Positions 799 to 63,571 of a DNA stretch of 64,000 nt are shown piece after piece. The stretch is from Candidatus Palauibacter sp. (GTDB lineage Bacteria; Gemmatimonadota; Gemmatimonadetes; Palauibacterales; Palauibacteraceae). The stretch lies in NCBI RefSeq assembly GCF_965221685.1, contig NZ_OZ244907.1. One strand, written 5' to 3'. The stretch's first letter is position 1; every line of letters begins with the position of its first letter. Both the position numbers and the translations under genes were made by a program. The notes under the pieces are model-generated. The model had not been told where the DNA came from. It did not search any database and saw only the letters and a program-made list of their open reading frames with translations.

Positions 799-835
799 TG
801 CGGCGCGCTCGAAGCGGCCGGGGAACGGCGTCCTG

Positions 836-883
836 GGCTTGCCTTGGGAAGGCAAGCCAGAGTACCCCGTGTAGGACACGGGG
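836..883 (+). promoter_or_regulatory. candidate oriT: two adjacent perfect inverted repeats between alpA and mobC
   Basis: GGCTTGCCTT-ggg-AAGGCAAGCC (10-bp arms, ~836-858) followed by CCCCGTG-tagga-CACGGGG (7-bp arms, ~865-883). These sit immediately upstream of mobC and the relaxase, the usual oriT position. Confidence 0.35.
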
Positions 884-994
884 CCTGGCGAGGGGATGGC
901 GCTGCCCCCCTTCGAACCCCACCAATATCCGCGCGCCGCTGGAGCGCGCGGGCGGGGGCTCCGCCCCCCGTCCCCCGTGTCGGCCGTCCGTCCG

Positions 995-2846: not shown

Positions 2847-3218
2847 ACTGACGGTGAAGGGGGGGCAGGATCGGCCGCACGGTCTTGAGGAGCCGCGCGG
2901 CACGAGGCTACGTGGTGTGGGATGCCGGGCGCTCGTTACCGAGGCCCCCGTTCGCCGCCGGGGTTGTCAACCGTCTGGACGAACGAGCATTATTCCTAGC
3001 AAGCACGTCAACGGAAGGGTCCACCGGAACGGCGAGGAGAGCTTCGGGACGATGTTGTTGAAGCGTGGATACCGCAGGGTATGCCACCGAGCGAGTCCTA
3101 CGCCTCTCCACCGCAATCCGAACGACGTGCCGGGTCGAGCCGCCTGCGATGCCAACTTGCCTTTGAACCTCCTCGACACCCAGGGAGTCGAACAGCCGTC
3201 ACTCGGGGAAGACAGATC

Positions 3219-45775: not shown

Positions 45776-47260
45776 TCACCTTGGCATGTGCAGCCGCTTG
45801 CCCTCGATTTCTGCTTCGCCCGAATCGAGGAAGGCGTTACACGCTTCGAGCTGCCGTTGGGTCTCGGCAATCGATGCCCAGTCGACCGCGATCGTCCAGC
45901 GCTGCGCATAATCGAGTGCACGAATCAGAGGTTCCGTGCGTTGGGTTCGCGACAACGCCCGTAGCGCGGCCAAGTAGTCGTCGCGGAAGACCGTCGGGAT
46001 GACGATCCGCTCTTCCCCTCCGGCCACGAGTTCCGCGTTCATCATCACCCGCGCCACACGTCCGTTGCCGTCCTCAAAGGGGTGAACCTCGCTGACGAGG
46101 AACATCATGTAGGCCGCGCGCTCAAAGGGCGATTCCAGACTGTGGTACAGGTCGAAGCCCTGCTCCAGTGTCCCGGGTACCAGTTCGGGAGCGACGAAGA
46201 TGGTTTGTCCAGCACGGTTCTGTCTTTCCTTGAACTCGCTAGGGCGCATCTCGGGGCGTCCCGCCATGATCTTCGCGTTGCGCTCACGCAGGAGACCGAG
46301 TAACGCCTCAAAATCCTTCGGCGTCCGACTCATTTCTTCTCTGTCCGAGACGAGACGCCAAGTACCGATCACATCCCTCGCGTCGGCTGGCCGGTGTCGC
46401 GGGATCGCGCCCTCGAAGACGATTTGGACCGCTTCATCGACCAGGAACTCCGTACCCTCGACGAAGTTCGAGAAGTACGCCTCAAAAAACGCCAGCGTCA
46501 CAGGCCCTGGAGCCTTGCGGTGAGGAGCTGGACGGTCGGTAGGAGGACGATCGCGAAGCGACTGATGCAGCCCGTGGAACAACTCCAGCCGATGGGGATC
46601 GTAGGCCCGCCCCCGACTGCGGGACCGCCCGACTCGCGAATCGAGTCGACTCTCCCGGGTGCCCAGCATAGCGCCGATCAGAGCCTGGAGGTCTGCGGCC
46701 TCCGTTTCCATATCGAGTTCAGAGGCTACTGCTCGGGCCTCGTCGCGGAGCCGGTTGGCGGCTTCTTCGCCCGAGACACGAATGAGACGATCAAGGTGCT
46801 CCTCAAGCTCCGTGCGCGTGAGAGTACGCGCGACACGGCCGCCCCGGGCTCGGGATGGACGAAGGTTCTCGAGATAAGCCCTGGGCCTGGAACTGAGGTA
46901 TAGCCCGTTGACAAAAGGTGTATCCGACGCAATTGACCCTGGCCCACGGCGAGGACGTAGCACGACTCCGGGCAATTCGGTCGTCCTCCCTCGCTCGCTG
47001 ACAAGGCAAACCGATCCATCGCTGGCGGGATCCGCTTCCAAAGCAGTGCGATCCGCGACCAGAGCACCTGGAAAGTACCCTGCGACGATTCCCCACAGGT
47101 TGCGCTTCACGATATCTTCGGGGTCATCGTCCAGGTTCTTGGTGTAGAGGCGAGACGCCAGTTTCCGGAGTTTCCCGGCCTTCATGGCCCGTGATACATC
47201 CCGGCTGATCGCCGTATGGGACACGAAGGCATCGGGCAATTCATCTAGTACACGGTTCAT
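45776..47260 (-). CDS. Fic-family protein (AMPylation/phosphocholination fold)
   Basis: Canonical Fic motif HPFEDGNGRVARVMMN. 494 aa with an extended N-terminal domain. Confidence 0.8.
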   Translation of the reverse strand: MNRVLDELPDAFVSHTAISRDVSRAMKAGKLRKLASRLYTKNLDDDPEDIVKRNLWGIVAGYFPGALVADRTALEADPASDGSVCLVSERGRTTELPGVVLRPRRGPGSIASDTPFVNGLYLSSRPRAYLENLRPSRARGGRVARTLTRTELEEHLDRLIRVSGEEAANRLRDEARAVASELDMETEAADLQALIGAMLGTRESRLDSRVGRSRSRGRAYDPHRLELFHGLHQSLRDRPPTDRPAPHRKAPGPVTLAFFEAYFSNFVEGTEFLVDEAVQIVFEGAIPRHRPADARDVIGTWRLVSDREEMSRTPKDFEALLGLLRERNAKIMAGRPEMRPSEFKERQNRAGQTIFVAPELVPGTLEQGFDLYHSLESPFERAAYMMFLVSEVHPFEDGNGRVARVMMNAELVAGGEERIVIPTVFRDDYLAALRALSRTQRTEPLIRALDYAQRWTIAVDWASIAETQRQLEACNAFLDSGEAEIEGKRLHMPR

Positions 47261-47829
47261 GGAATTATCTGCACGTTAAGGAGTCTGCCAAGCCTCGAAA
47301 TGAGAATTATCGTAACATAAGGAACCCAAAAAGCGAAAAAACCGGAGTTAACAGGAGCAAACGTTCCCGCGGGAACGTCGGATCGCCTAGGGCCTGAATC
47401 ACGGCAGGGAATCGTCTAACTACGTACAGGGCTGCACGATCTGCGTTTCCTGCCGTTGTACTGGACCTTGCTGGACCGTGCCGTGAAAGCGGGGAAAACC
47501 GGACCTGAATGGCGGGACTCCCACCCGCGTTGTCCTCGCCACCAAGGGTCCCAGAATGCTGTATGTGGACGCCCCCAGTTGGGCAAGCGCGGATTCAGAA
47601 CCGAGTTGGTGGCAGTGGGCCAGGTACTGTCGTATGTCCGGCCTCTTGATGCAGCGCTTGTTTGGCTGCGGGCCCGTATGGTGTGCGTGAGATCGGATCC
47701 AAATCGGCTTGGCGGGCTCATGAGGCCCTTCAGCATACACTGGTTTTTTCGATCCCGTCTTGTCGACCGTTTGCCCTTACCCGTTTCTCGTCCTGCTGCC
47801 CACACCTCCCCGACAGCGTCTTTGCTTTT

Positions 47830-48990
47830 CGGCTTTTTCTCCTTTCTCCGCCCGATCAGGCGGCAGTGCGAACCCGGTAGGTCTCCTTCTTCGTGGCCAG
47901 CGCCCAGACCGTCCGCGCCATCTTGTTGGCGAGCGCCACCGCCACCAGCTTCTTCGGCTTGCGTGCCAACATCCCGGCCAGCCACGGATCCGTGACGTCG
48001 CCGCGCCGGACCGCATGCGTGACAACGGTCATCGCTCCGGAGACCAGGAGCCGCCTGAGATCGCGTTGGCCCATTTTTGAGATCCGGCCCAGCCTCGGCT
48101 TGCCTCCGGTCGTGTGTTGCCGGGGCACGAGGCCGAGCTAGGCCGAGAAGTCGCGGCCGCGCCGGAAGCTCTCCATCGGCGGCGCGAAGGCCTGGATGGC
48201 CATCGCGGTGACCGGCCCGATGCCCGGGATCGTCATCAGGCAAGCCGTCTCTTCGTCCTCCCGTGCCCTCCGCAGGAATTCACGGTCGAGTCCGTCGATC
48301 TTCTCATCGAGCTCGTCGATCCGCCCAAACAGCAGCCAGCCCAGCTCGACGACCGCCTCCGGCAGGCCCGAGTCCCCGTCTTCGAGCACTGCGGCCAGTT
48401 GCCCGACCCGGGCTCTGCCTTTTGGAGCGACGATGCCGTACTCGACCAGGTGACCCCGAAGCGCGTTGATCGTCTGCGTGCGCTGGCGCGCCAGCAGGTC
48501 ACGCGTGTGAAAGAGCATCGGCTTGCTGCGCCTCCGTCTTGACCGCCACGAAGTGCATGGTCGGCCGCTCGGCCGCTTCCGTGATCGCCTCCGCGTCCGC
48601 CGCGTCGTTCTTCTGCCGCTTGACGAACGGCTTCACGTAGATCGGCGGAACCAGCCGCACCTCGTGGCCGAGCGCGGCGATCTCCCGGCCCCAGTAGTGG
48701 GCACCAGCGCACGCCTCCATCGCCACCGTGCAAGGCGGCTGCGAGGCGAGAAAGCTCAGCACCTTCCCGCGGCTCAGCTTCCGGCGGAAGGCAACCGACC
48801 CATCCGCCTTCGCCCCGTGCACCTGAAAGCTGCGCTTTGCCAGATCGATCCCGATGACGCTAACCTCTTCCATGTGGATGCCTCCTCCCTCAGATGGTCC
48901 GATTAAATCGCTCAGTACCATCTTGGCACATCGCGATGCCGTCGAGAGGGGGCGTCCACTCCATCGGCTTGTCTCCCATAATCATGCAGA
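47830..48990 (-). mobile_element. degraded IS110-family insertion sequence (boundaries approximate; this family has no terminal inverted repeats)
   Basis: Extent of the transposase remnants plus short flanks. Flanked by ~600-bp non-coding, lower-GC stretches on both sides. Confidence 0.4.
47856..48921 (-). pseudogene. IS110-family transposase, disrupted (one frameshift near 48499-48518 and one in-frame TAG at ~48138-48140)
   Basis: N-terminal DEDD_Tnp_IS110 block VIGIDLAKRSFQVHG...CTVAMEACAGAHYWGRE...KNDAADAEAI in ORF 48499..48921. Middle part MTIPGIGPVTAMAI in ORF 48138..48518 in another frame. C-terminal ORF 47856..48128 is in the same frame as the middle ORF but separated by an amber codon. 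Confidence 0.7.
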
Positions 48991-49543
48991 TTCCTGCGTG
49001 ATTTGCATGACCGGGTCGCGGGGAAGGCCCGGGCTTTTGAGCGCCCGCAGAGGCGAGCGTAGCGAGCCGGAGCGGGGCCAGCGGCGGGATGGAGGCCACC
49101 GATGCCGGGCCGTCCATGTACCCCTGAAGCCGGAGCGGCGACTGATTCCGCCAGCGCCCGCGGGGATCGACACGGGCATCAGTTCGGCTGTCGGTTGGAT
49201 CAACCTGACTACGCTTCTCCTCCGTCGTTTCGCCTCGTTTGGTCGTGCTGCCCTTCACGCTTCGGTGACCCGAAGGGCGACATCCTACGGATCTCATCCG
49301 CCGTAGGTTTCATTTTCGCTGGCCGACCAGTTGGAGTCCGAGGCACGGCGTTGCGAAGGAAATCGACTTGGCGGCGGGCAGTGGCGATCCCGGCGATACC
49401 AACGAAGGGCCGGTATGAGCATGCGACCGGGCGAGGGTAAGGGGACCCGACCGGCCTGCGGGCGGGACGCCGGGTTGCCAGAGAGCGACGGATTCTGTCC
49501 TACCTCATGGCGTTGTTCAGCGAGTTGGCCCATCTTTGTGGAC

Positions 49544-50776
49544 ATGTTCCCCCGGCAAGCCGGTCCATCGATTCCTGACGCCGCCGCGACCATAGCGGGT
49601 GTAGCCGATCGCCCACTGGTCGGCGCGGGCATTTATCTCGATTACGCCGCGACTACGCCTGTGGATCCGGCGGTCGCACGGGCGATGAGCGGTTTCCTCA
49701 CGATGGATGGCACCTTCGGGAACCCAGCCTCAGTGACTCACGGCTTCGGCCAGGCCGCAGCGGACGCGGTGGAGAATGCTCGACGGGAGGTCGCGGCCCT
49801 GGTTTCCTCAAGACCCGAAGAGATCATCTGGACCTCCGGGGCGACCGAGGCAATCAACCTTGCCCTGAAAGGATCGGCCCTAGCCCGTCGCGAGCGTGGC
49901 AGGCACATCGTTACCTCGCCCTTGGAGCATAGGGCAGTCCTCGATTCTGCGGAGTGGCTTGAGTCGCTGGGGTTCGAGATCGGCTATGTCGAGCTAGACG
50001 ATCACGGCAGAGTGACCCGGAAGGCTCTCTCGCGAGCGCTTCGACCAGACACCGTGCTCGTGTCTCTGATGCTCGTCAACAACGAGACGGGTACGATCAC
50101 CGACACCGCAGCGCTTGGCCCACTGATTCGTGAGCGGGGAGCACTCTTCCATGTGGACGCCGTGCAGGGCGCGGCGCGGCTACGCATGGACGACATCGCC
50201 ACTGCGGCGGATCTCGTCTCAATCAGCGGACACAAGATGTACGGACCGAAGGGGATTGGCGCGATCCGGGTTCGTATGCCTCTCCTAGGTGAGTTGGTTC
50301 CTCAAATGCACGGTGGCGGGCACGAGCTTGGGCTACGTTCAGGAACGCTGCCGACCCACCAGGTCGTCGGTATGGGCGAGGCCGCCAAGCTCGCTCGCGA
50401 GCACGGTGAGGCTGACGCGAAACACGTCACCTCCCTCGACCGAAAGCTGCGCGCACACCTAGACCGGATCAGGGGAGCGTCTTTGAACGGCAGCACTCCG
50501 CGACGCGTCCCCGGCATTCTCAACGTACACTTTGCGGATGTGGCGGCGGAGGCGCTGATGATCGGTCTCGGAAACGTCGCGATCTCATCCGGCTCAGCGT
50601 GCACCGCCGCAGAAGTACTGCCCTCTCATGTCTTGCTCGCACTCGGCCTTGGCGAAGAGAGAGCCCACTCTTCGGTCAGATTCAGCTTCGGTCGCTTTAC
50701 GACAATGGACGAAATCGATCACGTCGGATGGCTGCTGGCTGAGATCGTACCCGCGTTGCGGAAGCTATCGCGATGA
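49544..50776 (+). CDS. cysteine desulfurase, IscS/NifS class (DndA/SspA-like)
   Basis: IYLDYAATTP N-terminal block, SGHKMYGPKGIGA (PLP lysine), SSGSACTAAEV (active-site Cys). Stop overlaps the next start (ATGA). Confidence 0.8.
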   Translation: MFPRQAGPSIPDAAATIAGVADRPLVGAGIYLDYAATTPVDPAVARAMSGFLTMDGTFGNPASVTHGFGQAAADAVENARREVAALVSSRPEEIIWTSGATEAINLALKGSALARRERGRHIVTSPLEHRAVLDSAEWLESLGFEIGYVELDDHGRVTRKALSRALRPDTVLVSLMLVNNETGTITDTAALGPLIRERGALFHVDAVQGAARLRMDDIATAADLVSISGHKMYGPKGIGAIRVRMPLLGELVPQMHGGGHELGLRSGTLPTHQVVGMGEAAKLAREHGEADAKHVTSLDRKLRAHLDRIRGASLNGSTPRRVPGILNVHFADVAAEALMIGLGNVAISSGSACTAAEVLPSHVLLALGLGEERAHSSVRFSFGRFTTMDEIDHVGWLLAEIVPALRKLSR

Positions 50777-51963
50777 GCGTGTCCGCAACCTCGCCTACCA
50801 GTGTGGGGACCCTGCCGAACCGCATCGAGGCTGTCAAGGACGTGATTCGCTCGGAATACCAGGAGACGCACCGCTATCCATGGCTCGTCGCCTACTCCGG
50901 TGGGAAGGATTCCACCTTGCTCCTACAGTTGGTGTGGGAGGTAATTGCCGATCTCCCGCCCGACGCGCGACAGCGCCGCGTGCTGGTCGTTGGCAACGAC
51001 ACACTCGTCGAATCCCCCCTAGTCATCGAGCATCTCCGCGATTCGCTCAAGGAGATTGGGTCCGCCGCAGGGGAGCAGGGACTTCCCATCGAGACGAAGA
51101 TCACCGTACCGTGTATCGACCAGACATTCTGGGTGAGCGTCATCGGTCGCGGGTACATCCCTCCCACGCGCAATTTTCGCTGGTGTACCGACCGGATGAA
51201 AATTCTGCCCACTACCCGCTTGCTCAAACGTATCACTCGCAGCGCCAAAGGGTCGGTGCTCCTGATCGGAACGCGACGGGCGGAGTCGCAAAACCGTCAG
51301 CGTGCGATGAACAAACGAGAAGTGTCCGCTAGTCAGTTGAACCCGCACGGCAAGGTGGACGGCTGCTGGATGTTCGCACCTCTTGCGGACCTAAAGGACA
51401 ACGACGTGTGGATGATGCTCATGCAACACCCGGCACCCTGGGGTAAATCCCACCGTCGGCTGATCACCCTCTACCGTAACGCTGGCGGCGGCGAGTGTCC
51501 GCTGGTCATCACGAAGGAACAGGCTCCGTCTTGCGGGAGTTCGTCGCCGCGCTTTGGATGTTGGACGTGCACGGTTGTCCAGAAGGACCGCAGCCTCCGT
51601 GGGCTCATCGACTCCGGATATGCGGATACGGCACGAATGGAAGCGCTGTTCGATTTCCGCGAGTGGTTAATTGAAATGCGGGAGAGCGACACGAACCGTC
51701 TCCCCGTGCGTCGGGACGGCAACGTCAAGCGCCGGAAGGACGGGTCTCGCATCTATGGCCCGTTTACGCTCGCTGTGCGGAAGGAAATACTCAACAGGCT
51801 CCACAGACTCGAAGAGCGAATCGGCAAACGGCTCATTCTCCCAGCAGAGATTGACTCCATCGAAGATGTCTGGTGGCGCGACGAAATCCGCGAAGACGCG
51901 CGGCTCGCGCTTGAGCGCAGCATCGTGAACGAGGATCCCGAACCGGTCTTGGAGACGGCGTGA
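50773..51963 (+). CDS. PAPS-reductase-family ATP pyrophosphatase, DndC/SspD-like (putative DNA sulfur-modification enzyme)
   Basis: PP-loop VAYSGGKDST. Cys cluster GGGECPLV...SCGSSSPRFGCWTCT as in DndC-type proteins. 396 aa; ATGA overlap upstream, GTGA overlap downstream. Confidence 0.65.
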   Translation: MSVSATSPTSVGTLPNRIEAVKDVIRSEYQETHRYPWLVAYSGGKDSTLLLQLVWEVIADLPPDARQRRVLVVGNDTLVESPLVIEHLRDSLKEIGSAAGEQGLPIETKITVPCIDQTFWVSVIGRGYIPPTRNFRWCTDRMKILPTTRLLKRITRSAKGSVLLIGTRRAESQNRQRAMNKREVSASQLNPHGKVDGCWMFAPLADLKDNDVWMMLMQHPAPWGKSHRRLITLYRNAGGGECPLVITKEQAPSCGSSSPRFGCWTCTVVQKDRSLRGLIDSGYADTARMEALFDFREWLIEMRESDTNRLPVRRDGNVKRRKDGSRIYGPFTLAVRKEILNRLHRLEERIGKRLILPAEIDSIEDVWWRDEIREDARLALERSIVNEDPEPVLETA

Positions 51964-53735
51964 CTAGAATTCAATCGGAAGTAAGACTCCTCTTTCGCGT
52001 TCTGTGCTCGGCTCACTTCGAGGTGCCTTGGCACCAGCGCCACTACGACTGGACGGTGCAGGAGGTCGGCGATCTTCTCGAGGATCTGATGGACGCGCTC
52101 GATTCCGACAAGACTTGTTACTTCCTCGGCTCCATCATGCTACTCAAGCCAACCGGTGCCGCGCCGTGGAGGATCAACGACGGACAGCAACGGCTGATCA
52201 CATTCTCTCTGCTCATGGCGGCCTTCTGCCGCCGCTTCTCCGAAGAAGAGCCCCGTGATACTTGGCGCGAGACATCGGCGCTCCGCGCCCTGTTCGACCG
52301 CAACGAGAACGAAATCTCTCGCTTGGACGATGCGCACCAATATACGCATCGGATCGCGCCTCCGAAGGACAATAGGCGCATGTACACCCAGCTCCTCCAC
52401 GGTCACGACATCGGCAGCAACGGACTTATGACAGCTGCCTGGAACAAGATCGATGACTTTGTCGACTGCATGGACAGAGAGACGAGAGAGGCATTCTTCG
52501 ACTTTCTGCTGACGAAGTTGGAAGTCTCGGTTCTAACCGTTCCCGGAGATGTGGACGCTAACAGCGTGTTTGAGACGCTCAACGCCCGCGGTAAATCGCT
52601 GAGCGATGTCGACCTTATTCGGAACCTGCTGTACTCGTGTTTTTCGGAAATCGATGACACCGCGCGGCGAAACGCCGTGCACGCCAACCTCCAGAGCACG
52701 AGTGTCATCCTCAACACGAAACCGAAGGTCTCAGAGTACTTCCGCTGTTACCTGCAATGCCGCTATGGCTTCTTGCGAAAGAAGCGATTCTACCGCGAGT
52801 TCTGGAAGAAAACGCAGCACACGATACGCGGTGCCGCGTCCACCGACTACGCCTACAGCCTCGTAGCCGGCTTGGGGCGCCCGGAGAGTACATGGCTGTT
52901 CCAGACGATCATCTCTGCGAAACCGAGCCAAGCCCTTGAAGGGCGATTGCCGACGGTCTCCGGTAAACGCGATCTCGCCGTACTCCTCCGCGAACTCCAG
53001 GGATACAAGGTCTCGCATCCGCTCTGCTTCGCCTTGCTCCACCGGTTCATGGCCGAGAGCAGTGCAGCGAAGAAGAGAGCAGTGGGAAGGGTGGTCGGGC
53101 GCAGCTTGAAGAATCTTACATCATACATCATGAGAGCGGCCTTTGTGACCTCGACATTCCGGCCATCGAGAATCGAGGAACCCTTGGCGATGTGCGCCCA
53201 GAACGTGTTCGTGGGCACCGATTTCCGGTCGCTCGACATCATGGCCGAGTTGGAAGGAAACGACCCATTCGGTGTCGTTGACGACGCGAGCTTCATCCGG
53301 CGCATGACCGACATGGAACTACGCAGCAACAACCGATCCAGCAATCAGAAGGCGCTACGGTATCTGTTCGGCATCAATGCCCAACAGCAGAGAGGATCCG
53401 ATGCTCTGCAAATCGGCGGCTGTAGTGTCGAGCATGTGTTACCGCAGTCGGAAATGTACTGGCCGAGTTGGACTGGATTCAAAGGCGAGAATCCAGCAGC
53501 GTGGGTCCACCGGACAGGCAACTTCGTAGTTGTATCTCGCCGGGAGAATCGGGGTGGGTTCGAGTTCAACGCCAACTTCGCCGCCAAAAGGCGAGCCCTT
53601 GCGGAGAGTCCGCTGTTGATGGCAAGGAACGTAGCAGAAGACCACGAAGAGTGGACCCCTGCGGCCATCGAGAAACGCTCGGAACAGCTTGCTGTAGCGG
53701 CCGCTGGGATATGGACATTCCGCCGTGGGAACTGA
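51960..53735 (+). CDS. DUF262-DUF1524 two-domain nuclease (SspE/GmrSD-like, probable modification-sensing NTPase + His-Me finger nickase)
   Basis: N-terminus VPWHQRHYDWTVQEVGDLLEDL and the INDGQQRLITF (DGQQR) DUF262 signature. C-terminus GGCSVEHVLPQS...GNFVVVSRRENRGG...FNANFAAKR DUF1524 HNH-like motif. 591 aa. Confidence 0.75.
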   Translation: MTRIQSEVRLLFRVLCSAHFEVPWHQRHYDWTVQEVGDLLEDLMDALDSDKTCYFLGSIMLLKPTGAAPWRINDGQQRLITFSLLMAAFCRRFSEEEPRDTWRETSALRALFDRNENEISRLDDAHQYTHRIAPPKDNRRMYTQLLHGHDIGSNGLMTAAWNKIDDFVDCMDRETREAFFDFLLTKLEVSVLTVPGDVDANSVFETLNARGKSLSDVDLIRNLLYSCFSEIDDTARRNAVHANLQSTSVILNTKPKVSEYFRCYLQCRYGFLRKKRFYREFWKKTQHTIRGAASTDYAYSLVAGLGRPESTWLFQTIISAKPSQALEGRLPTVSGKRDLAVLLRELQGYKVSHPLCFALLHRFMAESSAAKKRAVGRVVGRSLKNLTSYIMRAAFVTSTFRPSRIEEPLAMCAQNVFVGTDFRSLDIMAELEGNDPFGVVDDASFIRRMTDMELRSNNRSSNQKALRYLFGINAQQQRGSDALQIGGCSVEHVLPQSEMYWPSWTGFKGENPAAWVHRTGNFVVVSRRENRGGFEFNANFAAKRRALAESPLLMARNVAEDHEEWTPAAIEKRSEQLAVAAAGIWTFRRGN

Positions 53736-55161
53736 ACGCAAAGCGCACGCGGCTGAACTGCGCCGGCATGCCGAAGACATGCTCGGAGTTCCTGCACGAT
53801 TGCACGACTATCAGTGGGAGGGGGTCTCCTTCCTTTATCGGAATCGCGCGGCCCTGCTCGCGGATGAGATGGGGTTGGGGAAGACGGTGCAAACCGCTGT
53901 CGCGCTTGCGCTCACTCTGAGCACGCGGCGCGAGATGAGCCGCGCACTCATTGTTGCACCGGCGTCACTGAAGATGAACTGGATGTCCGAGCTTGCGAAG
54001 TGGGCTCCGTCGTTGACGGTTCGCAGCTTGGTGGGTGGTGCGCGCGAGCGCGAGGCGTTCTATCTGTTGCCAATACCGGTTCTTGTCAGTTCGTATGAAC
54101 AGATTCGGCAAGACGGATTGAACCGGATTCCGTCCAACACCTTTGACATCGTTATCCTCGATGAGGCGCAACGGATCAAGAATCCGAATTCGGCAACAGC
54201 CCTGTCTTGCAGACTGCTCTCTCGGAAGTGCTCGTGGGCGTTGTCGGCCACGCCATTGGAGAACGATGCCCGGGACGTGGCTTCGATCCTTGCTTTTCTT
54301 GATCCCATGCAGCCCTTCGATATGTCAGCCCGGCAGCTATCGGCTCGGCTCAGTTCGATGATGCTTCGCCGCCGCAAATCGGAGGTGCGGGGTGAACTGC
54401 CTCCGGTAATCGTTCAGGACTTGAGCCTCGAACTCGCCGGGCCTCAACGAACGCGATACGACGAGCTATGGACGAAACGCTATGAAGCCGTATCAGAGGG
54501 TATTGGCGACACCGCTATCGCCCTATTGGCGACGATTACTCGGTTGAAGATCATCTGTAACTTTGATTCGGACTCAGGAGCATCCACCAAATTCGCCGCC
54601 TTGGGTGAAATCTGCGCCGGTGCCGGTCCAGATGCGCGGATCCTCGTCTTCTCCCAGTTCGTCGAGACTCTCAAGTGGGTCGCCAACCGCCTCGGCGTGG
54701 CGTGTGATCTCCTCACAGGATCTATGTCGTCGGGCGCCCGCGAAGCCGCGATTGAGCGATTCAAGACGGCGGGCACCCCAAGAGTGCTTTTTACGTCGCT
54801 ACGCGCGGGAGGCGTCGGTCTGAATCTAGGCGAGGCCACCCATGTCGTAATGTATGATCGCTGGTGGAATCCGGCTGTCGAGATGCAGGCGGTGTATCGC
54901 GCGCATCGCTTTACCCGGGAGACGCCGCTACACGTCGTACGCTTCACGTTGACCGGTACTATCGAAGAACGAATCGCGTCAATTCTGGACGCCAAGCAGA
55001 GGCTCTTTGAAGATGTCGTAGAATCCACGGAAACCACGGCTCAAGATTTCTCGGTCGAAGAGCTAATGCACATTCTCGAAATCTCCATTGGAGATCAGCA
55101 CTCACTGACGAAGGGAACAGAGGACGGTCGCAATCATGGCGAAAATCTTGGAATATCGTGA
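53725..55161 (+). CDS. minimal SNF2-family DNA-dependent ATPase/helicase
   Basis: Walker A ADEMGLGKTVQT, DExx box ILDEAQRIKN, helicase-C motifs (GGVGLNL, QAVYRAHR). GTG start overlaps the upstream stop; 478 aa with no extra domains. Confidence 0.8.
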   Translation: MGTERKAHAAELRRHAEDMLGVPARLHDYQWEGVSFLYRNRAALLADEMGLGKTVQTAVALALTLSTRREMSRALIVAPASLKMNWMSELAKWAPSLTVRSLVGGAREREAFYLLPIPVLVSSYEQIRQDGLNRIPSNTFDIVILDEAQRIKNPNSATALSCRLLSRKCSWALSATPLENDARDVASILAFLDPMQPFDMSARQLSARLSSMMLRRRKSEVRGELPPVIVQDLSLELAGPQRTRYDELWTKRYEAVSEGIGDTAIALLATITRLKIICNFDSDSGASTKFAALGEICAGAGPDARILVFSQFVETLKWVANRLGVACDLLTGSMSSGAREAAIERFKTAGTPRVLFTSLRAGGVGLNLGEATHVVMYDRWWNPAVEMQAVYRAHRFTRETPLHVVRFTLTGTIEERIASILDAKQRLFEDVVESTETTAQDFSVEELMHILEISIGDQHSLTKGTEDGRNHGENLGIS

Positions 55162-55960
55162 CATCCCCCTCGACGAGTTGGTCATCGGCATGGGGCAAGT
55201 CCGGACTCAGAGTCCTGGCAAGGGAATCGACGACCTAGTGAGGAGCATCGAGGCCCAAGGGCTGCTACAGCCCATTGTCGTGTGCCCCGCGAGGGACGAG
55301 GGCAAGTGGGAGATCCTCGTCGGACAGCGCCGTTTCCTCGCGCACAGACTGCTGGAAAGGGAGTCGATTGCCGCAGCCGTTCTGGACGAACGGGTAAGCA
55401 GCGGCGAGGCCAAGGCCATCTCCATCACGGAAAACCTGATTCGACGGCAACTCTCCGGGACGGAGCTGAAGGACGGCATTCTCTATCTCTACAACCTGTA
55501 CGGGAGCTTGAAGGATGTGGTGGAGGCCACTGGCCTGCCGTACAGCAAGGTGCGAGACAACGTAAAGTATCCCCGCCTTATCCCGGAGTTGAAGACACTT
55601 GTCGACGATGGTAAGGTCGATGTCAATGCGGCCGTAAAGGCGCAGGACGCAGCTAGCGATGACCACGGTAATGTCAAGTCGGGCGATGCCATCATCCTAG
55701 CACAGGCGATGGTACCCATGTCAGGGGTCCAGAGGAAGAAGGTAACCAAGGAGCGGAAGGAACGCCCGGAGAGGCCGGTGGAGGATGTGATCGAGGACGC
55801 TACAACCGGATCGAGGGTCACTCAGATCGTCGTGACGGTAACCCAGGACACACGCGCGGCCCTACAGAGGTTTGCAAGGGAGGAAGGAACAAACCAGGAC
55901 GAGGCAGCCGCAACACTCATTGAGGAGGCTCTGACGGGGCGCGGCCTTCTCGATGACTAG
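55136..55960 (+). CDS. ParB-like protein (ParB N-terminal nuclease/CTPase fold + HTH)
   Basis: LQPIVVCPARDEGKWEILVGQRRFLAHRLL (GxRR box II region) and ISITENLIRRQL. HTH LKDVVEATGLPYSKVRDNVKY. Basic/acidic C-terminal tail. Overlaps the SNF2 gene by 26 nt. Confidence 0.7.
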   Translation: MAKILEYRDIPLDELVIGMGQVRTQSPGKGIDDLVRSIEAQGLLQPIVVCPARDEGKWEILVGQRRFLAHRLLERESIAAAVLDERVSSGEAKAISITENLIRRQLSGTELKDGILYLYNLYGSLKDVVEATGLPYSKVRDNVKYPRLIPELKTLVDDGKVDVNAAVKAQDAASDDHGNVKSGDAIILAQAMVPMSGVQRKKVTKERKERPERPVEDVIEDATTGSRVTQIVVTVTQDTRAALQRFAREEGTNQDEAAATLIEEALTGRGLLDD

Positions 55961-56678
55961 TCTGGCCGGTCTGAACGCGTTGGAATTGGGGCGCTTGCGG
56001 ATGTCCGTAGGATATGGGACGCACAGAAGCGGGCGGCCCCTGTCACCAGTGGAAGTCGGTGCGCTTCTTCATAACGCCCGGAAGAACGGAGCCTCGCTAA
56101 CGGACTGTGCAGAGGCAGCGCAGCTTCATAGCACGGGTATTCGTCGCTTTCTGCGTATTCTGGACCTCCCGTCTGATCTTCTGCATTTGATCGATTGGGG
56201 TTCCGGCAAGGACTTTGTCGGGTTCTCCGCTGCGGTGGAAACCACGAAGCTGACAGACTCCGACGATCAGCGTGCGGTCGCCGCTGCGATACTGGCAAGC
56301 AACCTCAGTAGCAAAGAGGTCAGGCAGGTTACTCAACTGCGGCAGCGGTCAGGACGCCTCATCGAGGAGTGTGTACAGGAAGTTCTTAGGATGCGCCCAA
56401 CAGTTGTAAGGCGCTATGTTTTCATTGGCTCCGTTGCATCCGAAAACATGGAAGAGCTGCGGGCGCTTGCGCAGTCGGCTAGGGATTCGATGTTGGCGAC
56501 AGGTATCGAGAAGATTGGCCTTGAGAGCGCGACTGGTCGGTTGGGAGTGAGGTTCTTCACGCTCGTTGGTGACGAGCGGTTCAACGCCTCTTTGCGTGAA
56601 ATCGGCAAGGAAGCGATTGAGGCACAGCTTCGGACTCACGTTTCGCGGGCCGTGATCGATGCCACATCGGACGGTTGA
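55953..56678 (+). CDS. ParB-type HTH domain protein lacking the N-terminal ParB box (paralogous partner of the preceding gene)
   Basis: LSPVEVGALLHNARKNGASLTDCAEAAQLHSTGIRRFLRILDLPSDLLHLIDWG resembles the ParB/KorB central HTH region. Overlapping start/stop on both sides. Confidence 0.45.
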   Translation: MTSLAGLNALELGRLRMSVGYGTHRSGRPLSPVEVGALLHNARKNGASLTDCAEAAQLHSTGIRRFLRILDLPSDLLHLIDWGSGKDFVGFSAAVETTKLTDSDDQRAVAAAILASNLSSKEVRQVTQLRQRSGRLIEECVQEVLRMRPTVVRRYVFIGSVASENMEELRALAQSARDSMLATGIEKIGLESATGRLGVRFFTLVGDERFNASLREIGKEAIEAQLRTHVSRAVIDATSDG

Positions 56679-57681
56679 CGTATTCGATAACGGTGCCGTG
56701 CGCCTCGGAGCGAACACGGTGTGCGACGGCTATGCGATGGGCTATGCCTTCCGGGTTCAGTCGCACCTGCACGATGACCACATGGCCGAGTTCGACAAGA
56801 GCAAAGGCGAGCAGGATCTGTTCATGAGTCCAGAGACCCGCCGACTGCTGATTGCCGAGCGGAACGACGATCTTGAGTATCGGGACAACCTCATTCCGCT
56901 GGGACGTGGTATACAGAGAGAACTCAACGATGGTTCCAAGCTTACGCTCCTTCCCTCGGGCCACATGCTCGGATCGTGCCAGGTAGCCCTCGAATTGTCT
57001 AGCGGTATCCGTTGCGGCTATTCGGGCGATTTCGCTTGGCCACTGGACGATGTGATGCAGGTTGACGAGCTGGTCGTGGACAGCACCTACGGAAGCCCTG
57101 CGAGCGTCCGACGTTACACACAAGATGAGGCCGAAAGCTGTCTTTTGGAGGTGGTGTGCCAAGCTCTTCGCCGCGGGTCTGTGCATGTCAAGGCTCACAG
57201 AGGAACCATTGAGCGCGTGCTGCAAGTTGTCGCTGGCAATGTCGGCGTTCCGGTCTTGGCTAGTGCGCGTTTGATCGCCGAAGTCGAGGTATATCGGGAT
57301 CATGGGTTCGGAGCGGAGGAATTGGTAGCGTTGGACTCGGACATAGGGCGCGCCGTGCTGGAGGAGCGGTCCTATGTCCGCCTTTACTCTAAGGGAGACT
57401 CCTTCGGCAACGAGCTGATCGAAGGCACGAGCATTACGTGCAGCGCGTACATGGTGAACACCGACCATCCGCTGCTCCAGTTTTCGGAACGGGCATACCG
57501 GGTGGCTCTATCGAACCACGCGGACTTCGAGGGGACCTTGGCGTATGTGGAGGCTACGGGAGCCCAAAGGGTTGTGACTGACAACACAAGAAGCCACGGA
57601 GTAGACCTGGCCATTGCGATCAACAACCGCTTTCCGGACATCCGCGCCGAACCGTCTACGAACGGCCCTGTGCCGTCCTGA
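56659..57681 (+). CDS. metallo-beta-lactamase-fold hydrolase (putative nuclease)
   Basis: HLHDDHM (HxHxDH) motif plus downstream His/Asp ligands. 340 aa; overlaps the upstream gene by 20 nt. Confidence 0.7.
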   Translation: MPHRTVDVFDNGAVRLGANTVCDGYAMGYAFRVQSHLHDDHMAEFDKSKGEQDLFMSPETRRLLIAERNDDLEYRDNLIPLGRGIQRELNDGSKLTLLPSGHMLGSCQVALELSSGIRCGYSGDFAWPLDDVMQVDELVVDSTYGSPASVRRYTQDEAESCLLEVVCQALRRGSVHVKAHRGTIERVLQVVAGNVGVPVLASARLIAEVEVYRDHGFGAEELVALDSDIGRAVLEERSYVRLYSKGDSFGNELIEGTSITCSAYMVNTDHPLLQFSERAYRVALSNHADFEGTLAYVEATGAQRVVTDNTRSHGVDLAIAINNRFPDIRAEPSTNGPVPS

Positions 57682-58651
57682 GCCCCCCTGCTTCGTGGAA
57701 AGAAACAGGGTCTTCTAGCCCAGCATCGCGTTGCCGTGAGGCGTGGCCTGAAGCGGAGAGCGATTCCCGCAAATTGAGGCGGTTTCCCCGCTGTTCCAGC
57801 GCTGCGGGAAGAGATACGGTTCAAGGGCAAGAAACGCGGATCCGCGTCCGAACTCGAATCCCAGGCCCGTACCCACGATCAGGCGGTCATCGATCCAGAT
57901 GAGATTGTGGACCACGGCACCCACGTCTTCCGGTCGGCCGGAGAGTCCCGCGACCCTAGGCGACATCGAGCGCTTGTTCCTTGACTCCGAGTTGAGGAGG
58001 CACCGGTTCCAGCCCCACGCCACGGTCTCGGACGCCTACTGGCTTCGCTCCGTCCCGGACGCGCGCGCGGTCACCTTCAAGCCGGCCGTGTTCGAACGTC
58101 ACCCGTCCACGGTGGAGCTACTCACCTACGGGAACCCCACCTTCAACGATCTGTTGCTCGAAGTCGCCGAGCCGGACGGCGACGACTCCTCTGACACCGC
58201 GGCCGCTGAAGCCGGAGCGGCTCTCGTGCTGCACGATCCCGGACCTCCGCCCGTCGCCGTCTGCGTTGTCAAGGAAGAATGCCGATCTCTCCACCGTCGC
58301 AAGTGTTGCCGATTACCGGACGGCGGCGCAGCAGGGGGATGTCGCTTGGTCCGATTCGGACAGGAAACGCGCGTTCGCCGTGCTTCGCGAAGCGCGCGCC
58401 CGCGTGGAGGAGGAGGCCGCTACGGTCTCGCGTCGAATGCGGGGGCCAAGCTGCGCGGCCTGCGCGAGGAGGCTCGCCGGATTCTCATCGAGAGCGCGCA
58501 CATCGTCGAGGCCCGGGATGGGTTGTTCGCCGGCAACGGCTTCGACCGCCTCTTGAAGCGGGGAGTGCCGTATCCCGGCCTCATCACGGTGGCCAGCGGC
58601 AGCATGCCCTCCATGATTGCCACGGATACCCCATTGGGTTACCATGATTCC

Positions 58652-59271: not shown

Positions 59272-59498
59272 GCAGGAGAATGCTCTGGCAGGCGCGGTTG
59301 AGGAAGAGGATGCGCCGACGGACGCGGCGGAGCGCCTGTCGGCCTCGCCGGTGGGGGAAGCGTGAGCCCAGCGGGTGAGCCCGCCGCATCTTGGGACCGG
59401 ATGCCGGGTCCGAGTACGGAGTCGCAGGTGGATGCGTACCGCACGGCTTGAACGAGCGCGCCGACGACCTCGAATGACCTCGAAATCGACCGCTTGGA

Positions 59499-59618
59499 TT
59501 CCCGCCGTTAACCACTGCATTCCGGCCATTCGAGACGGTCGAATCCGATTGGGCTTCAACGGCAGAAGTGGCGGATCGTTGTAGCCCTAGTTAGACTTAC
59601 GTGATCTCCTACCGTGAT
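59499..59618. repeat. ~120-bp imperfect direct repeat, copy A
   Basis: Shares with copy B a conserved 5' block TTCCCGC.G.TTA.AACC.CTGCATTCCGGCCATT.GA and a 3' block AGTGGCGGATC...TTAGACTT.CGTGAT.TCCT..CGTGAT around a ~32-nt variable core. Contains hairpin ATTCGA-gacgg-TCGAAT. Confidence 0.5.
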
Positions 59619-59682
59619 TCGTCGCCTTGGCATTCTGCGTTTCCACTTGGCTCCCCCCCTGAAGCTGGCCCCTTTCAACGAG

Positions 59683-59976
59683 TCAGTAATGACCCCGAGC
59701 TCGGAGGAACTTGACTTCCCCGTTCGTAGCTTTGTAAAGCAGGCGATTCTTCTGGTCGATCCTCCGCGACCACTGACCGGACCGATCACCAGAGAGGGCT
59801 TCGGGTTTCCCCCTACCGGTGGCTAGGTCTCGGCACGCTTCCGAGATCAGCTTCAGGATGTGATTGCACTTCTTGGGGTCCTTCTTCGACCAGTACAGCA
59901 GATCCTTCAAGCAGTGCTTATGGAAGAGGGAGTCCCTAGGTTTTTCTGTGACCACTCCGCTTTCTTCTGTGGTCAC
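59683..59976 (-). CDS. yoeB: YoeB/Txe-family toxin
   Basis: KDLLYWSKKDPKKCNHILKLISEACRDLATGRGKPEALSGDRSGQWSRRIDQKNRLLYKATNGEVKFLRARGHY is co-linear with YoeB, including the C-terminal HY. Confidence 0.8.
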   Translation of the reverse strand: MTTEESGVVTEKPRDSLFHKHCLKDLLYWSKKDPKKCNHILKLISEACRDLATGRGKPEALSGDRSGQWSRRIDQKNRLLYKATNGEVKFLRARGHY

Positions 59977-60257
59977 TCCTCAGCAAGACCGAGAAAATCT
60001 CGGAGCTCATCAACGCTCATTCGTACATACGACTCGCGATCTTCGATCGCCTCTCGCAAGGCATTAGCGTTCTCCGGATACGAGAGACAAAGTGTCTCTC
60101 GCGAGCCTGAGTCTAGCTCGGCGGGTACGGCGACCGGCCCGCCTGCTTCGGTGCCATCAGCGCGCCACTCGCCTTCTGGTGCAGTCCCGGCGACCGAGCC
60201 AAGCACGAATCCTACAACGCTGGCCGTGGCGGCCGAGCTGCAGTTGAACGTAGTCAT
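59973..60257 (-). CDS. YefM-like antitoxin with atypical/possibly disrupted N-terminus
   Basis: C-terminus ETLCLSYPENANALREAIEDRESYVRMSVDELRDFLGL matches the YefM C-terminal toxin-binding region. The N-terminal 50 aa do not resemble the Phd/YefM fold. 4-nt overlap with yoeB. Confidence 0.45.
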   Translation of the reverse strand: MTTFNCSSAATASVVGFVLGSVAGTAPEGEWRADGTEAGGPVAVPAELDSGSRETLCLSYPENANALREAIEDRESYVRMSVDELRDFLGLAEE

Positions 60258-60258
60258 G

Positions 60259-60669
60259 TCACCAACCCTCCTGTGACGCCCGCTCGTTTAGCATGGCGAT
60301 AAGGCTACGCAGCGCCGACTCCTGTAGGACGAATCGACCCCGCACATGAACGGGGACGGTCCCCATCTTTTCAACCTCCGCACGCTGCTCCTTAGGCGTT
60401 CCTAAGACGAGAGGAAAGGGAGCGTGTCCAATCACCAGCTGGAACTGGTTATCGACACGCTGCAGGATGAACTGGTCAGCGGCAACAGCGGGTGAGCCAT
60501 CGTCGTTCCATCGCAAGCCGACTTGGATGGTTGCTTCTTCGTGCTCGCGCGGCTTGTCGTTCTTGCGTGGCATGTAAGAACCGCTTGCTTTGAGGTGTGG
60601 TTTGGTATTCTCGTCCCCCCATCCACCGGTGTTCACAACATCGGGGAACGATAGCGAGCCGCGTTCCAT
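60259..60669 (-). CDS. hypothetical protein
   Basis: ORF 60259..60729, internal Met chosen. No recognisable motifs; moderate codon bias. Confidence 0.3.
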   Translation of the reverse strand: MERGSLSFPDVVNTGGWGDENTKPHLKASGSYMPRKNDKPREHEEATIQVGLRWNDDGSPAVAADQFILQRVDNQFQLVIGHAPFPLVLGTPKEQRAEVEKMGTVPVHVRGRFVLQESALRSLIAMLNERASQEGW

Positions 60670-61305
60670 GCGGCAACATCCCGGCACAAGCCAATACGAG
60701 CCTAGCGCGCGGCTAGTTCCAGCCCACACCTAGGCCAGAACGTAGCCAGTACGTAGCGCCCAGTCGCCATCTCGGAGACGCCGCCGGTCGATCCCGGCGA
60801 ACGACCGTATCTTGGCCAAGGGATCCGCGGGCTTCCGCTCGGCGGTCTCCAGCGCCGCTAGATACTTGTTCCTTCTGAGCCCTCCCCCGGATCGCCCTCG
60901 GACGCGTCCCCCGCTCGCGATAAGCTCGCGTCGCCTCACGAGCCGCCGGGAAATGGCGGGTGCATCTGGTTCGCCCGTCTTCAGGCGGATCGGTGCATTC
61001 AGATTTGATGGACGCACAGACCGGCCGCCCTCCGTTCGGCGTAACGATATCGTCGGACACCCGATGCGCTAGGGAGATCGATAGCCGGGATTCTTCGGCA
61101 GGTATCGCCGAGTCCGCGCCTTTCCTGCACGGCCAGATGGCGAGCGCATGGGGGGCATCGGTGGAGCAGCGGGTCGAGTACCGTGGCGGCCAAGAGGTCA
61201 TGGCCACCACGGTACTCGACGGCTTCTAGCAGCTAGTCGCTCCATGTAACCTCCATGAAGGCCGATGGTCGGCCTCACCGGGCGTCCACAGAGACTGGGT
61301 AGAAA

Positions 61306-61425
61306 TTCCCGCTGCTTATAACCGCATTCCGGCCATTTGACGATGATTGAGTCGGATACATGTACAACAGCAATAGTGGCGGATCATGCAGTCCTGATTA
61401 GACTTGCGTGATTTCCTGTCGTGAT
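61306..61425. repeat. ~120-bp imperfect direct repeat, copy B
   Basis: See copy A. The same orientation, 1.8 kb downstream, bracketing the yoeB/yefM-like module and the hypothetical ORF. Confidence 0.5.
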
Positions 61426-61471
61426 ATGAGCGTCAGGTGATCCGCATACTCCTTGTACATGTACCGATACT

Positions 61472-62434: not shown

Positions 62435-63571
62435 GTGCGCTCCGCTCCGCCCGGTCGGCACTGCGACGGGAACGGACTTTACCTCTACGTCCAGAAGACC
62501 GGAACCCGAAGCTGGATTCAACGGCTCGTCATCCGGGGCCGCAAGCGCGAGCTCGGACTCGGCAGCGTCGAACTGGTCTCTTTGGCCGAAGCCAGGGAGC
62601 AGGCGCTCGCCAACCGCAAGCTCGCCCGTTCGGGCGGCGATCCCTTGGCCGAGAAACGGCGGCTGGTCGGCATCCCCACCTTTGCCGAGGCCGCCAAGCG
62701 TGTCGTCGAGCAGAAGCGGGCCGGGTGGCGGAGCGCGGCCTACGCCAAGGAGTGGTTCCGTAACTTGGAGATTCACGCCTTCCCCCGCATCGGGGATGTG
62801 GCCGTCTCGGAGGTCACGAGCGGCGACGTGTTGGACATCCTCACCCCCATCTGGCACACCAAGGCTCCCACGGCCCGGTTCGTCCACATGCGGGTCCGGG
62901 CGGTCTTGGAATGGGCCATCGCCATGGAATGGAGGACCGACAACCCCTGCGACTGGATCCTTCACCTGCTCGGCCCGCAGCACGATGTCGTCACCCACCA
63001 CAAGGCCCTGCCTCACGGCGAGGTCGCCGACGCCATCGGGAAGGTGCGGGCTGGGGAGCCGGAGAGGGTGGACACGTTGGCCTTCGAGTTCCTCGTGTTG
63101 ACGGCGGCGCGGGGCGCCGAGGTCCGTGGCGCGGTGTGGAGCGAGATGGATGAACGCTCGGGTGTTTGGACGATCCCCGCAAGGAGGATGAAGACCGGGC
63201 GCGAGCAGCGGGTGCCGCTGTGCGGGCGGGCGCTGGTGATTCTGGAGGCGGCCCGGAAGCTGGAGGGCGGGAAGAACCCGGTCGTGTTCGTGAACGAGCG
63301 CGGGAGGGCGTTGGACGGGAAGCGGCTGAACCGGCTGTTGAGGAAGCACGGGATCGCGGCGGTGCCGCACGGGTTCCGGTCGTCGTTCCGGGACTGGGCG
63401 GCGGAGAGGACGGATCATCCACGGGAGGTGGTCGAGGCGGCGCTGGCGCATGTGGTCAAGAGCAAGGTCGAGGCCGCCGACCGGCGCACGGACCTGTTCG
63501 AGCGGCGTCGTCGGCTCATGGCCGACTGGGAAGCGTATCTCGCGGGCCGGAGAGCGGGCACCGGAACCTGA
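62435..63571 (+). CDS. int: P4/CP4-57-type tyrosine integrase (Arm DNA-binding domain DUF4102-like + catalytic core)
   Basis: HCDGNGLYLYVQKTGTRSWIQRL Arm-type N-terminal motif. Catalytic R...HxxR...Y region (LTAARGAEV, HGFRSSFRDWAAE, AHVVKSKVEAAY-like). First usable start is a GTG inside the conserved N-terminal motif. Confidence 0.85.
   Translation: MRSAPPGRHCDGNGLYLYVQKTGTRSWIQRLVIRGRKRELGLGSVELVSLAEAREQALANRKLARSGGDPLAEKRRLVGIPTFAEAAKRVVEQKRAGWRSAAYAKEWFRNLEIHAFPRIGDVAVSEVTSGDVLDILTPIWHTKAPTARFVHMRVRAVLEWAIAMEWRTDNPCDWILHLLGPQHDVVTHHKALPHGEVADAIGKVRAGEPERVDTLAFEFLVLTAARGAEVRGAVWSEMDERSGVWTIPARRMKTGREQRVPLCGRALVILEAARKLEGGKNPVVFVNERGRALDGKRLNRLLRKHGIAAVPHGFRSSFRDWAAERTDHPREVVEAALAHVVKSKVEAADRRTDLFERRRRLMADWEAYLAGRRAGTGT

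Follow-up and report, generated by a model that had tools for sequence, protein, structure and literature searches.

The 64-kb window analysed here, a stretch of 64,000 nucleotides from Candidatus Palauibacter sp., contains two related repeats, copies A and B, on either side of a yoeB/yefM-type toxin–antitoxin (TA) module. They belong to a family of elements of about 150 nt, named E here. We read E as a cis-acting recombination arm joined to a core half-site, serving tyrosine-recombinase-driven integrative and often mobilisable islands of Gemmatimonadota, with A and B as decayed ends of stacked island segments, and we give this reading a probability of roughly 60%. It draws on a family with a common anatomy, sharp junctions at the 3' tail of E, transfer RNA (tRNA) genes found in halves at such junctions, an asymmetry of the genes on the two sides, and a 16-mer shared by E and integrase leaders.

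An earlier note on this DNA had reported a pair of imperfect direct repeats of about 120 bp. The pair is real: blastn of positions 59498-59621 against the window aligned A (59498-59620) to B (61305-61425) with 73.8% identity over 122 nt (E-value 4e-8), and a MAFFT alignment of the two showed, as described, blocks kept at both ends around a variable middle. Their length had been underestimated. A hidden Markov model (HMM) of the family places A at 59495-59644 and B at 61302-61452, about 150 nt each and both on the plus strand (nhmmer E-values 1.9e-29 and 7.1e-30), and these scores together with blastn rule out a chance or low-complexity likeness. The twin CGTGAT motifs are found in both copies (59600-59605 and 59613-59618 in A; 61407-61412 and 61420-61425 in B). 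The ATTCGA/TCGAAT pair (59528-59533 and 59539-59544) and the T-loop-like GGTCGAATCC (59537-59546) singled out in A do exist there, but they belong to its variable core and are kept neither in B nor in the family, and the second is a chance feature. That no cloverleaf could be drawn agrees with ARAGORN, which found no tRNA or transfer-messenger RNA (tmRNA) across the whole window.

A first HMM built from A and B revealed a third, inverted copy (C), and a genome collection was then scanned with the pattern TTAGACTTNCGTGATNTCCTNNCGTGAT. It matched 46 loci, nearly all in metagenome-assembled genomes (MAGs) of Gemmatimonadota (Longimicrobiales and Candidatus Palauibacter), with at most three per genome, and a second pattern, GCAGATCGTGCAGYCC N3-10 TTAGAC, matched at least 120 metagenome loci. 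The note had considered that there might be no further copies and that the likeness might be limited to low-complexity matches; instead, the window holds four copies, and the family HMM gave 192 hits in 1.35 Mb of fetched family loci (numbered with an L below), of which 136 were distinct near-full copies. A and B are each 63-72% identical to their nearest relatives, each other included, and are among the most diverged members, while C reaches 90% identity to copies from other organisms. Neither A nor B, judged by sequence, is a duplicate of the other. No match to copy A, the family consensus or the two patterns was found in plasmid, phage and IMG/VR collections. Rfam 15 gave nothing in the whole window at gathering thresholds and nothing overlapping A or B at E-values up to 10. 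With no Rfam family and nothing on it turned up by literature searches, the E family appears to be undescribed. The distribution of E, taken with the 67% G+C of the window, points to a Gemmatimonadota genome as the origin of this DNA. Typical copies also occur outside the Gemmatimonadota label, in 'Gammaproteobacteria' MAGs (L026, L027, L033, and L039) and a 'Bryobacterales' MAG (L019 and L031); these are either mis-binned contigs from the same sponge or marine samples or cases of inter-phylum transfer of E.

On its 5' side, E carries two TTCCCGC(C/T) direct repeats about 22 nt apart, or four at a spacing of 11-13 nt in some divergent copies, and the direct repeats of this half are helically phased, a pattern typical of protein-binding DNA. 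A variable stretch follows, and then an inverted repeat of 9-10 bp, ACGGCAGGA(G) ... (C)TCCTGCCGT, whose arms lie about 40 nt apart and enclose a near-invariant GGCAGATCGTGCAGTCC, TTAGAC, and one or two CGTGAT motifs. The 3' part exists in two subtypes and closes with a tail of about 25-30 nt ending in ..(G/A)TC(C)GC(C/T). Between the arms of the inverted repeat, the 16-mer GCAGATCGTGCAGYCC consists of two direct GCAG(A)TC repeats. Because the search patterns fixed parts of the 3' half, its invariance is partly an artefact of collection. The hexamer YCYGCC/GGCRGR occurs 3.2 times per element, compared with 0.5 in shuffles, and has five fixed positions. The inverted repeat, which is the only covarying one and sits within the 3' half, has 970 Watson-Crick cells versus 909 ± 6.6 in column shuffles, and five of its nine pairs show at least two pair types.

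Copy A has TTCCCGCC (59499-59506) and a degenerate TTCCGGCC (59520-59527) as its direct repeats, inverted-repeat arms ACGGCAGAAG (59559-59568) and CTCCTACCGT (59606-59615), a degenerate 16-mer within 59570-59587, GTTAGAC at 59590-59596, and a tail end near ..ATTCTGCG (59632-59639). In B, the corresponding parts are TTCCCGCT (61306-61313) and TTCCGGCC (61327-61334), arms ACAGCAATAG (61367-61376) and TTCCTGTCGT (61413-61422), a 16-mer with two mismatches (61379-61394), and the tail end ..GATCCGCA (61439-61446). Neither carries an intact 16-mer, and A and B are probably decayed sites.

The two sides of E differ. Open frames with a coding-type G+C content at third codon positions run into E on the tail side in 50 of 123 cases, versus 3 of 112 on the 5' side, and homology between copies ends within a few bases of ..TCCGCC. 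The 5' side is intergenic DNA following assorted genes, often for defence (a DUF499-type four-gene operon, GmrSD-like), that end about 20-30 nt upstream. These upstream genes lie on either strand and at variable distances, and a constant 3' element of a same-strand gene was rejected as an identity for E.

Beyond the tail, several kinds of sequence begin abruptly. In family members other than A and B, tails are directly followed by the 3' parts of tRNAs, starting from the anticodon loop (Arg-CCT, Ile-GAT, Val-TAC, Pro, and Ala-TGC), or alternatively by reverse-complemented tRNA 5' parts that end at the anticodon loop. A tRNA T-arm motif follows 8 of 156 tails, against an expectation of about 0.25. 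One tRNA-Arg(CCT) was found in halves, its 5' part at L126 and L086 and its 3' part at L052 and L087; the acceptor strand GTCCCCG of one half is complementary to CGGGGAC of the other, and both kinds of junction carry the loop CTCCTAA. The last bases of the tail mimic the 5' strand of the anticodon stem. ARAGORN found no intact tRNA next to any copy and none overlapping any copy in 166 loci. A tRNA or tmRNA remnant inside the repeat was likewise rejected, ARAGORN being negative and the real tRNA fragments adjoining other members but never lying inside E. At L142, a second tRNA-like 5' fragment (..GCTAGCTCAGTTGGCGGGAGTC..) lies about 100 nt beyond a tRNA-Ile 5' fragment, and its position adjoining the first suggests that this site was hit by repeated integration events.

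Other tails are fused, in either orientation, to truncated mobile genes. Breakpoints in relaxase genes fall at about amino acid (aa) 126 and at aa 324 on the same strand and at aa 430 on the opposite strand. A second, 387-aa integrase is interrupted at about aa 43, 44-55, and 115, mobC is cut at aa 66, and fragments of P4-type integrases occur as well. Within 15-35 nt of 16 out of 153 distinct tails come an inverted repeat and CTGGCGAGGGG, and then mobC and an MbeA-like relaxase gene. Tail end and flank together also form short palindromes (CCGCC-GA-GGCGG; GTCTGCC-AAAAT-GGCAGAC), and palindromes also follow some tails, as with ACCCTGACGT-A-ACGTCAGGGT in L125 and related sequences in L040, L047, and L095. 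The tails of one subfamily (L093, L099, the 3278-3422 copy of L118, L119, and L123) enter two to three repeated palindromes of the TCTGCCAAAATGGCAGA type, which look like operators or iterons of some protein.

The genes around E are arranged with the same asymmetry. Every P4-type integrase gene within 3 kb of E (13 of 13) stands beyond the tail, with none on the 5' side. The same holds for mobC and relaxase genes, and defence genes occupy the 5' side. In the window, a tyrosine integrase gene of P4/CP4-57 type (62435-63571, plus strand; domains Arm-DNA-bind_3, Phage_int_M, and Phage_integrase) lies on the same strand as B and begins 983 nt past its tail. Two marks of an attachment (att) site are found here, namely a location at the junction of island and target, with the tRNA cut at its anticodon loop in other family members, and an adjacent integrase gene. 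The earlier suggestion of att-like sites left by a small insertion was therefore right about the kind of site, given the sharp outer boundary at tRNA fragments or truncated mobile genes and the integrases beyond, but not about its history: A and B are not twin products of one small insertion but members of a family numbering hundreds of copies, each having diverged on its own. All-against-all clustering of open reading frames (ORFs) within 4-5 kb of E yielded no recurrent neighbour enzyme: the 5' side had only defence operons of varied kinds, and past the tail there were only backbone genes. The ORFs beside tRNA-junction copies, compared by eye, had no common family.

A further link to integrases is provided by the 16-mer, which occurs 174 times inside E and 12 times elsewhere in the 1.35 Mb (nine distinct contexts). 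Each of these 12 precedes the gene of the 387-aa tyrosine integrase, 20-26 nt ahead of the start codon and just before the ribosome-binding site. The gene is preceded by a conserved leader, GCGCAGATCGTGCAGTCCATC..GGAGGAATCGAACG-ATG, at L007, L012, L014, L016, L018, L048, L051, L079, L147, and others. In P4-type systems, autoregulation by integrase (Int) and excisionase (Int/Vis) gives a site shared by the att arm and the int promoter or leader, and the shared 16-mer shows the pattern that would be expected of an Int or excisionase site present in both places. The window has an AlpA-family gene (490-795) and no copy of the 387-aa integrase; no TTCCCGC repeats were found between B, or the element of L044, and the respective integrase gene.

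Copies of E are also arranged in characteristic ways. Direct arrays are common, with spacings of 0.15-13 kb. Convergent pairs, tails inward, enclose small modules, for example an origin of transfer (oriT) with mobC and relaxase genes (L003, L075, L057, L127, L045, and L080). The matched tRNA halves imply pairs with tails outward, and the window shows such an arrangement, with C opposing A and B. Mixed orientations occur in the window and in seven other loci, and half-copies are represented by D in the window, L035, and L137.

We propose that E combines an array of protein-binding, arm-like repeats with one half of a crossover core at its 3' tail. A tyrosine integrase, together with a directionality factor of the AlpA/Xis kind, would assemble on E and exchange strands at the tail end. 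Partner sites would be palindromic or stem-loop-like, with tRNA anticodon stem-loops preferred and many secondary sites used as well. In the circular form, two inverted copies of E would face each other across the core, and after integration they would lie at the two island ends with their tails outward. Insertion into a resident site could produce convergent pairs, and repeated integrations with adjacent deletions could leave arrays, half-copies, and the gene modules between them. In the window, the yoeB/yefM segment would then have the right-hand end A on one side and the next right-hand end, B, on the other, with the integrase gene downstream.

Much of this resembles the att arms of lambda- and P4-type systems, with their arm-type Int and Xis/Vis/AlpA sites: E has clusters of direct repeats next to the presumed crossover point, its junctions fall at the tRNA anticodon loop with the tail mimicking the stem, the integrase gene lies just across the core, and, as in P4, a site is shared between the arm and the int promoter region. 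Arrays of E are also reminiscent of the tandem accretion of islands at tRNA genes, where they would be leftovers of successive integrations. Integrases of the SSV type, from archaeal viruses, have their att site inside the int gene. E tails are similarly joined to the 387-aa int gene at about codons 43 and 115, and the tail end CGATCCGCTGG resembles int codons 40-43 (CGGTCGCTCGG). Unlike the SSV case, there are several breakpoints in both orientations, and intact copies of the 387-aa gene exist elsewhere in the same loci; the fusions look more like recombination at secondary sites than like a designed partition of the gene.

Several points weigh against an att-type role. Unlike in lambda and P4, the same 150-bp arm stands, inverted, at both island ends, and many secondary junctions lie inside genes, which is not the picture of a textbook att site. 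The arm is kept across islands with different targets and two integrase types, which is unusual for attP arms. At the junctions seen, ARAGORN detects no restored tRNA, in contrast to classical tRNA-targeting islands, and no island was found with an identical core at both ends and its tRNA restored. Within the window, no shared core or identical direct repeats lie beyond the tails of C, A, and B; outside it, no circular junction, empty site, or complete island flanked at both ends was seen, and the symmetric-site model joins junctions from different contigs. No one enzyme is tied to E, and both integrase types are themselves cut by E tails. Lacking an intact 16-mer, A and B may be non-functional relics, and a folded single strand would explain the covariation of the inverted repeat no less well than a protein site would. 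Because the same arm is found at both ends, tRNAs are left unrestored, secondary junctions are many, and the enzyme is in question, transposon-like, RNA, and transfer explanations stay alive.

The first of these takes E as the terminal inverted repeat of a transposon-like element, either a strand-biased or Tn554-like tyrosine-recombinase transposon or one mobilised by a trans-acting transposase; the transposase would then bind the subterminal repeats, and the repetition of the anticodon loop would represent a target-site duplication. Inverted, tails-outward copies do interrupt tRNA genes that are left unrestored, the truncated genes joined to tails are of many kinds, in the manner of transposon insertions with adjacent deletions or inversions, and the terminal ..TCCGCC resembles the internal TTCCCGCC repeats, consistent with the enrichment of YCYGCC/GGCRGR given above. 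The nearest transposon-like comparison is with strand-biased circularizing elements, which use tyrosine recombinases and whose joined ends are imperfect inverted repeats around a short spacer (PMC10214605). As in those elements, a few bases are carried along or duplicated at E junctions, and insertion would be closer to transposition than to classical prophage integration (PMC10214605). Their ends, though, consist of two short motifs, C and C', that flank a 6-bp spacer, with a fixed intA-tfp-intB-srap operon at one end, and they are found mainly in Gammaproteobacteria (PMC10214605), whereas E is a 150-bp multi-site arm to which no such operon is linked. The 7-nt anticodon loop is present on both junction types, but across different contigs, and in the window neither C...A nor C...B is flanked by a target duplication. 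Moreover, no transposase recurs near E, the C-A island encodes none, and anticodon-loop junctions with stem-mimicking tails and integrases just beyond are hallmarks of integrases. We regard a transposon end as unlikely. A bridge-RNA-like end of the IS110/IS1111 type was rejected separately, since only 3 of about 190 copies have homologues of the window's IS110-family transposase nearby, and the arrangements are not consistent.

It is less probable still that E is transcribed as a small RNA, either from the minus strand, where a hairpin loop with the complement of the 16-mer would pair with the integrase mRNA leader beside the ribosome-binding site and so repress the integrase, or from the plus strand, as a decoy for a factor that binds the leader. 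This would account for the perfect conservation of the 16-17 nt that E and the integrase leader have in common, a stretch 8-12 nt upstream of the Shine-Dalgarno sequence, and for the covariation of the 9-bp inverted repeat around it. The non-canonical pairs of that stem also favour the minus strand, being mostly G-U when read there (94, versus 48 G-T on the plus strand). Those of a candidate inner stem, however, favour the opposite strand (216 G-T versus 10 A-C, read on the plus strand), so no single transcript folds consistently. Single-copy folding energies of A and B on both strands were no better than those of shuffles (z-scores of +0.46, -0.83, +0.26, and -0.29), Rfam gave no match at either threshold, and no promoter- or terminator-like sites were seen at A or B. 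The earlier idea of a repeated regulatory or small-RNA element thus gains no positive support. Helically phased repeats in the 5' half speak rather for protein-binding DNA, and the hard tail junction would go unexplained by an RNA gene.

Conjugative transfer offers a further and still fainter alternative, in which E is a cis element such as an extended accessory region of oriT or a single-stranded DNA hairpin of the leading region (a priming site or promoter), and its tails arise from relaxase joining near nic. The 16 tails followed by the inverted repeat, CTGGCGAGGGG, mobC, and MbeA-like relaxase fit such a role, same-strand fusions of tails to relaxase-internal positions look like deletions from a fixed point beside oriT, and single-stranded DNA in transfer could fold at the covarying inverted repeat. 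The backbone beyond E tails and the left end of the window both recall mobilisable elements with MobC/NikA, MbeA-like (MOB-HEN type) relaxases, and AlpA, having alpA, an inverted repeat with a CTGG/C nic-like motif, mobC, and a relaxase gene. Unlike the parts of those elements, E lies outside the minimal oriT and is also seen at a distance from any mob module. In the window, the alpA-oriT-like-mobC-relaxase module (490-2846) contains the inverted repeat and CTGGCGAGGGG (830-900) with no E, so E is not needed for the oriT at this end. Most copies, A and B among them, have no mob genes nearby, and anticodon-loop junctions with the loop on both sides are no relaxase signature. We rejected E as the MobC/MbeA-type oriT itself, as the inverted repeat plus CTGGCGAGGGG is a separate sequence following the tail.

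The integron attC site proposed in the earlier note, with TA genes as cassettes, can be set aside as close to negligible: TA or defence modules do precede a repeat whose ends are conserved and whose core varies, the integrase next to direct arrays reads away from them, and GTTAGAC in E fits the R' consensus GTTRRRY, but a lone GTTRRRY is expected by chance about 0.3 times per 150 bp on both strands, there is no complementary R'' (GTCTAAC at the other end), no end-to-end imperfect R''/L''-L'/R' hairpin, and neither attI nor Pc in the context, both orientations of E are seen, junctions at tRNA halves and in truncated genes are unlike cassette boundaries, and the integrase is of P4 type with an arm-binding domain, matching no integron-integrase model (its sole NCBIfam hit was PRK09692, below cut-off). 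As a description, the likeness to cassettes, with a repeat coming after a module, does hold some truth.

The layout of the window can be viewed in this setting. The stretch from 46 to 63.6 kb has a G+C content of 56-66%, compared with about 70% elsewhere and 67% overall. From 46 kb, the order is a Fic gene, C, a frameshifted IS110-family transposase gene, a phosphorothioation-like defence cluster, D with a gene fragment, a relE-like/HTH (helix-turn-helix) pair, A, yoeB, the gene in yefM position, two ORFs without assignment, B, one ORF, and the P4-type integrase gene. Copy C (47372-47523, minus strand; nhmmer E-value 2.2e-30) is full length, inverted relative to A and B, and of the second 3' subtype (..GTTAGACGATTCCCTGCCGTGAT), with a single Y-position variant in its 16-mer (47429-47444). 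Its tail points left, to the Fic gene, so that the tails of C and of A and B point outward from a defence island of 12-14 kb. The last bases of this tail overlap a perfect 18-bp palindrome, ACGTTCCCGCGGGAACGT (47361-47378), possibly a core-type site. Starting about 110 nt beyond the tail of C, on the same strand as C, is the gene for a 494-aa Fic-domain protein (45776-47260, minus strand); since this gene sits in the low-G+C zone, the island may extend to the left of C. The IS110-family (DEDD) transposase gene upstream of C (about 47860-48921, minus strand) is split by a frameshift and, with homologues near only three family copies, is probably an incidental insertion.

Between C and D, a plus-strand defence cluster (49331-57681) encodes a cysteine desulfurase (Aminotran_5), a PAPS-reductase-like protein, GmrSD (DUF262/DUF1524), an SNF2 helicase, a ParB_N protein, the product of one unassigned ORF, and a beta-CASP/metallo-beta-lactamase nuclease, and resembles a Dnd/Ssp-type phosphorothioation system. 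Copy D (57761-57842, plus strand; nhmmer E-value 1.9e-9) is a 5' half only, covering model positions 5-87. It breaks mid-element after ..AAACGCGGATC and is followed, five bases on, by the C-terminal part of a gene. In L044 and L157, the homologue of this gene is full length and stands before a complete element; positions 4473-5237 of L044 match 57847-58609 of the window at 75%. The L044 element and its flank are closest to A, and the L044 integrase, 68% identical to that of the window, lies 379 nt beyond the element. Gene, E, and, in L044, integrase are contiguous there, whereas the window has TA modules and extra copies of E in that interval; the 2.7-kb segment of yoeB, B, and the following ORF is thus extra DNA between the island end and the integrase gene.

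Within this segment, yoeB (59683-59976, minus strand) matches Pfam YoeB_toxin (6.8e-25) and TIGR02116, and the 94-aa ORF upstream of it, in yefM position (59973-60257, minus strand), had no family match in Pfam or NCBIfam. The module is cargo between A and B, outside the repeat itself, and no yoeB/yefM-type TA module was found beside E in other family loci. About 80 nt upstream of B lies a near-perfect hairpin (61173-61220) with 23-nt arms, 91% complementary, and a 2-nt loop, for which Rfam gave only spurious microRNA matches. Far from these features, at the left end of the window, a plus-strand mobile patch (213-5491) comprises an HTH ORF, the alpA gene mentioned above, two hairpins with CTGGCGAGGGG (about 830-900, oriT-like), NikA/MobC (1007-1330), an MbeA-like relaxase (1323-2846), a Dcm methylase (3081-4205), and an EcoRII-type endonuclease (4043-5491); no copy of E lies in it.

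Reading E as a recombination arm of integrative islands explains the local anatomy: yoeB/yefM is no integron cassette but part of a stack of island fragments beside a phosphorothioation-like defence cluster. To our knowledge, no mobile-element ends have been annotated in Gemmatimonadota, and the HMM and pattern of E provide a marker for the borders of defence and TA islands in this poorly studied, mostly uncultured phylum, which includes sponge symbionts. A bolder and only tentative possibility, which we would not bet on, is that E-bounded islands form an undescribed class of mobile element, carrying defence and TA cargo between two inverted 150-bp multi-site arms, moved by a tyrosine recombinase into anticodon stem-loops or look-alike palindromes without repair of the tRNA, and using resident copies of E as landing pads for more modules, with the 16-mer perhaps letting E silence, as a DNA site or an antisense RNA, the integrases of incoming elements that are related. 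If so, symmetric arms and tRNA splitting would represent a new style of tyrosine-recombinase mobility and a testable route for the shuffling of defence modules outside Proteobacteria, and the landing pads would support an integron-like cassette economy on a recombinase that is not an integron integrase.

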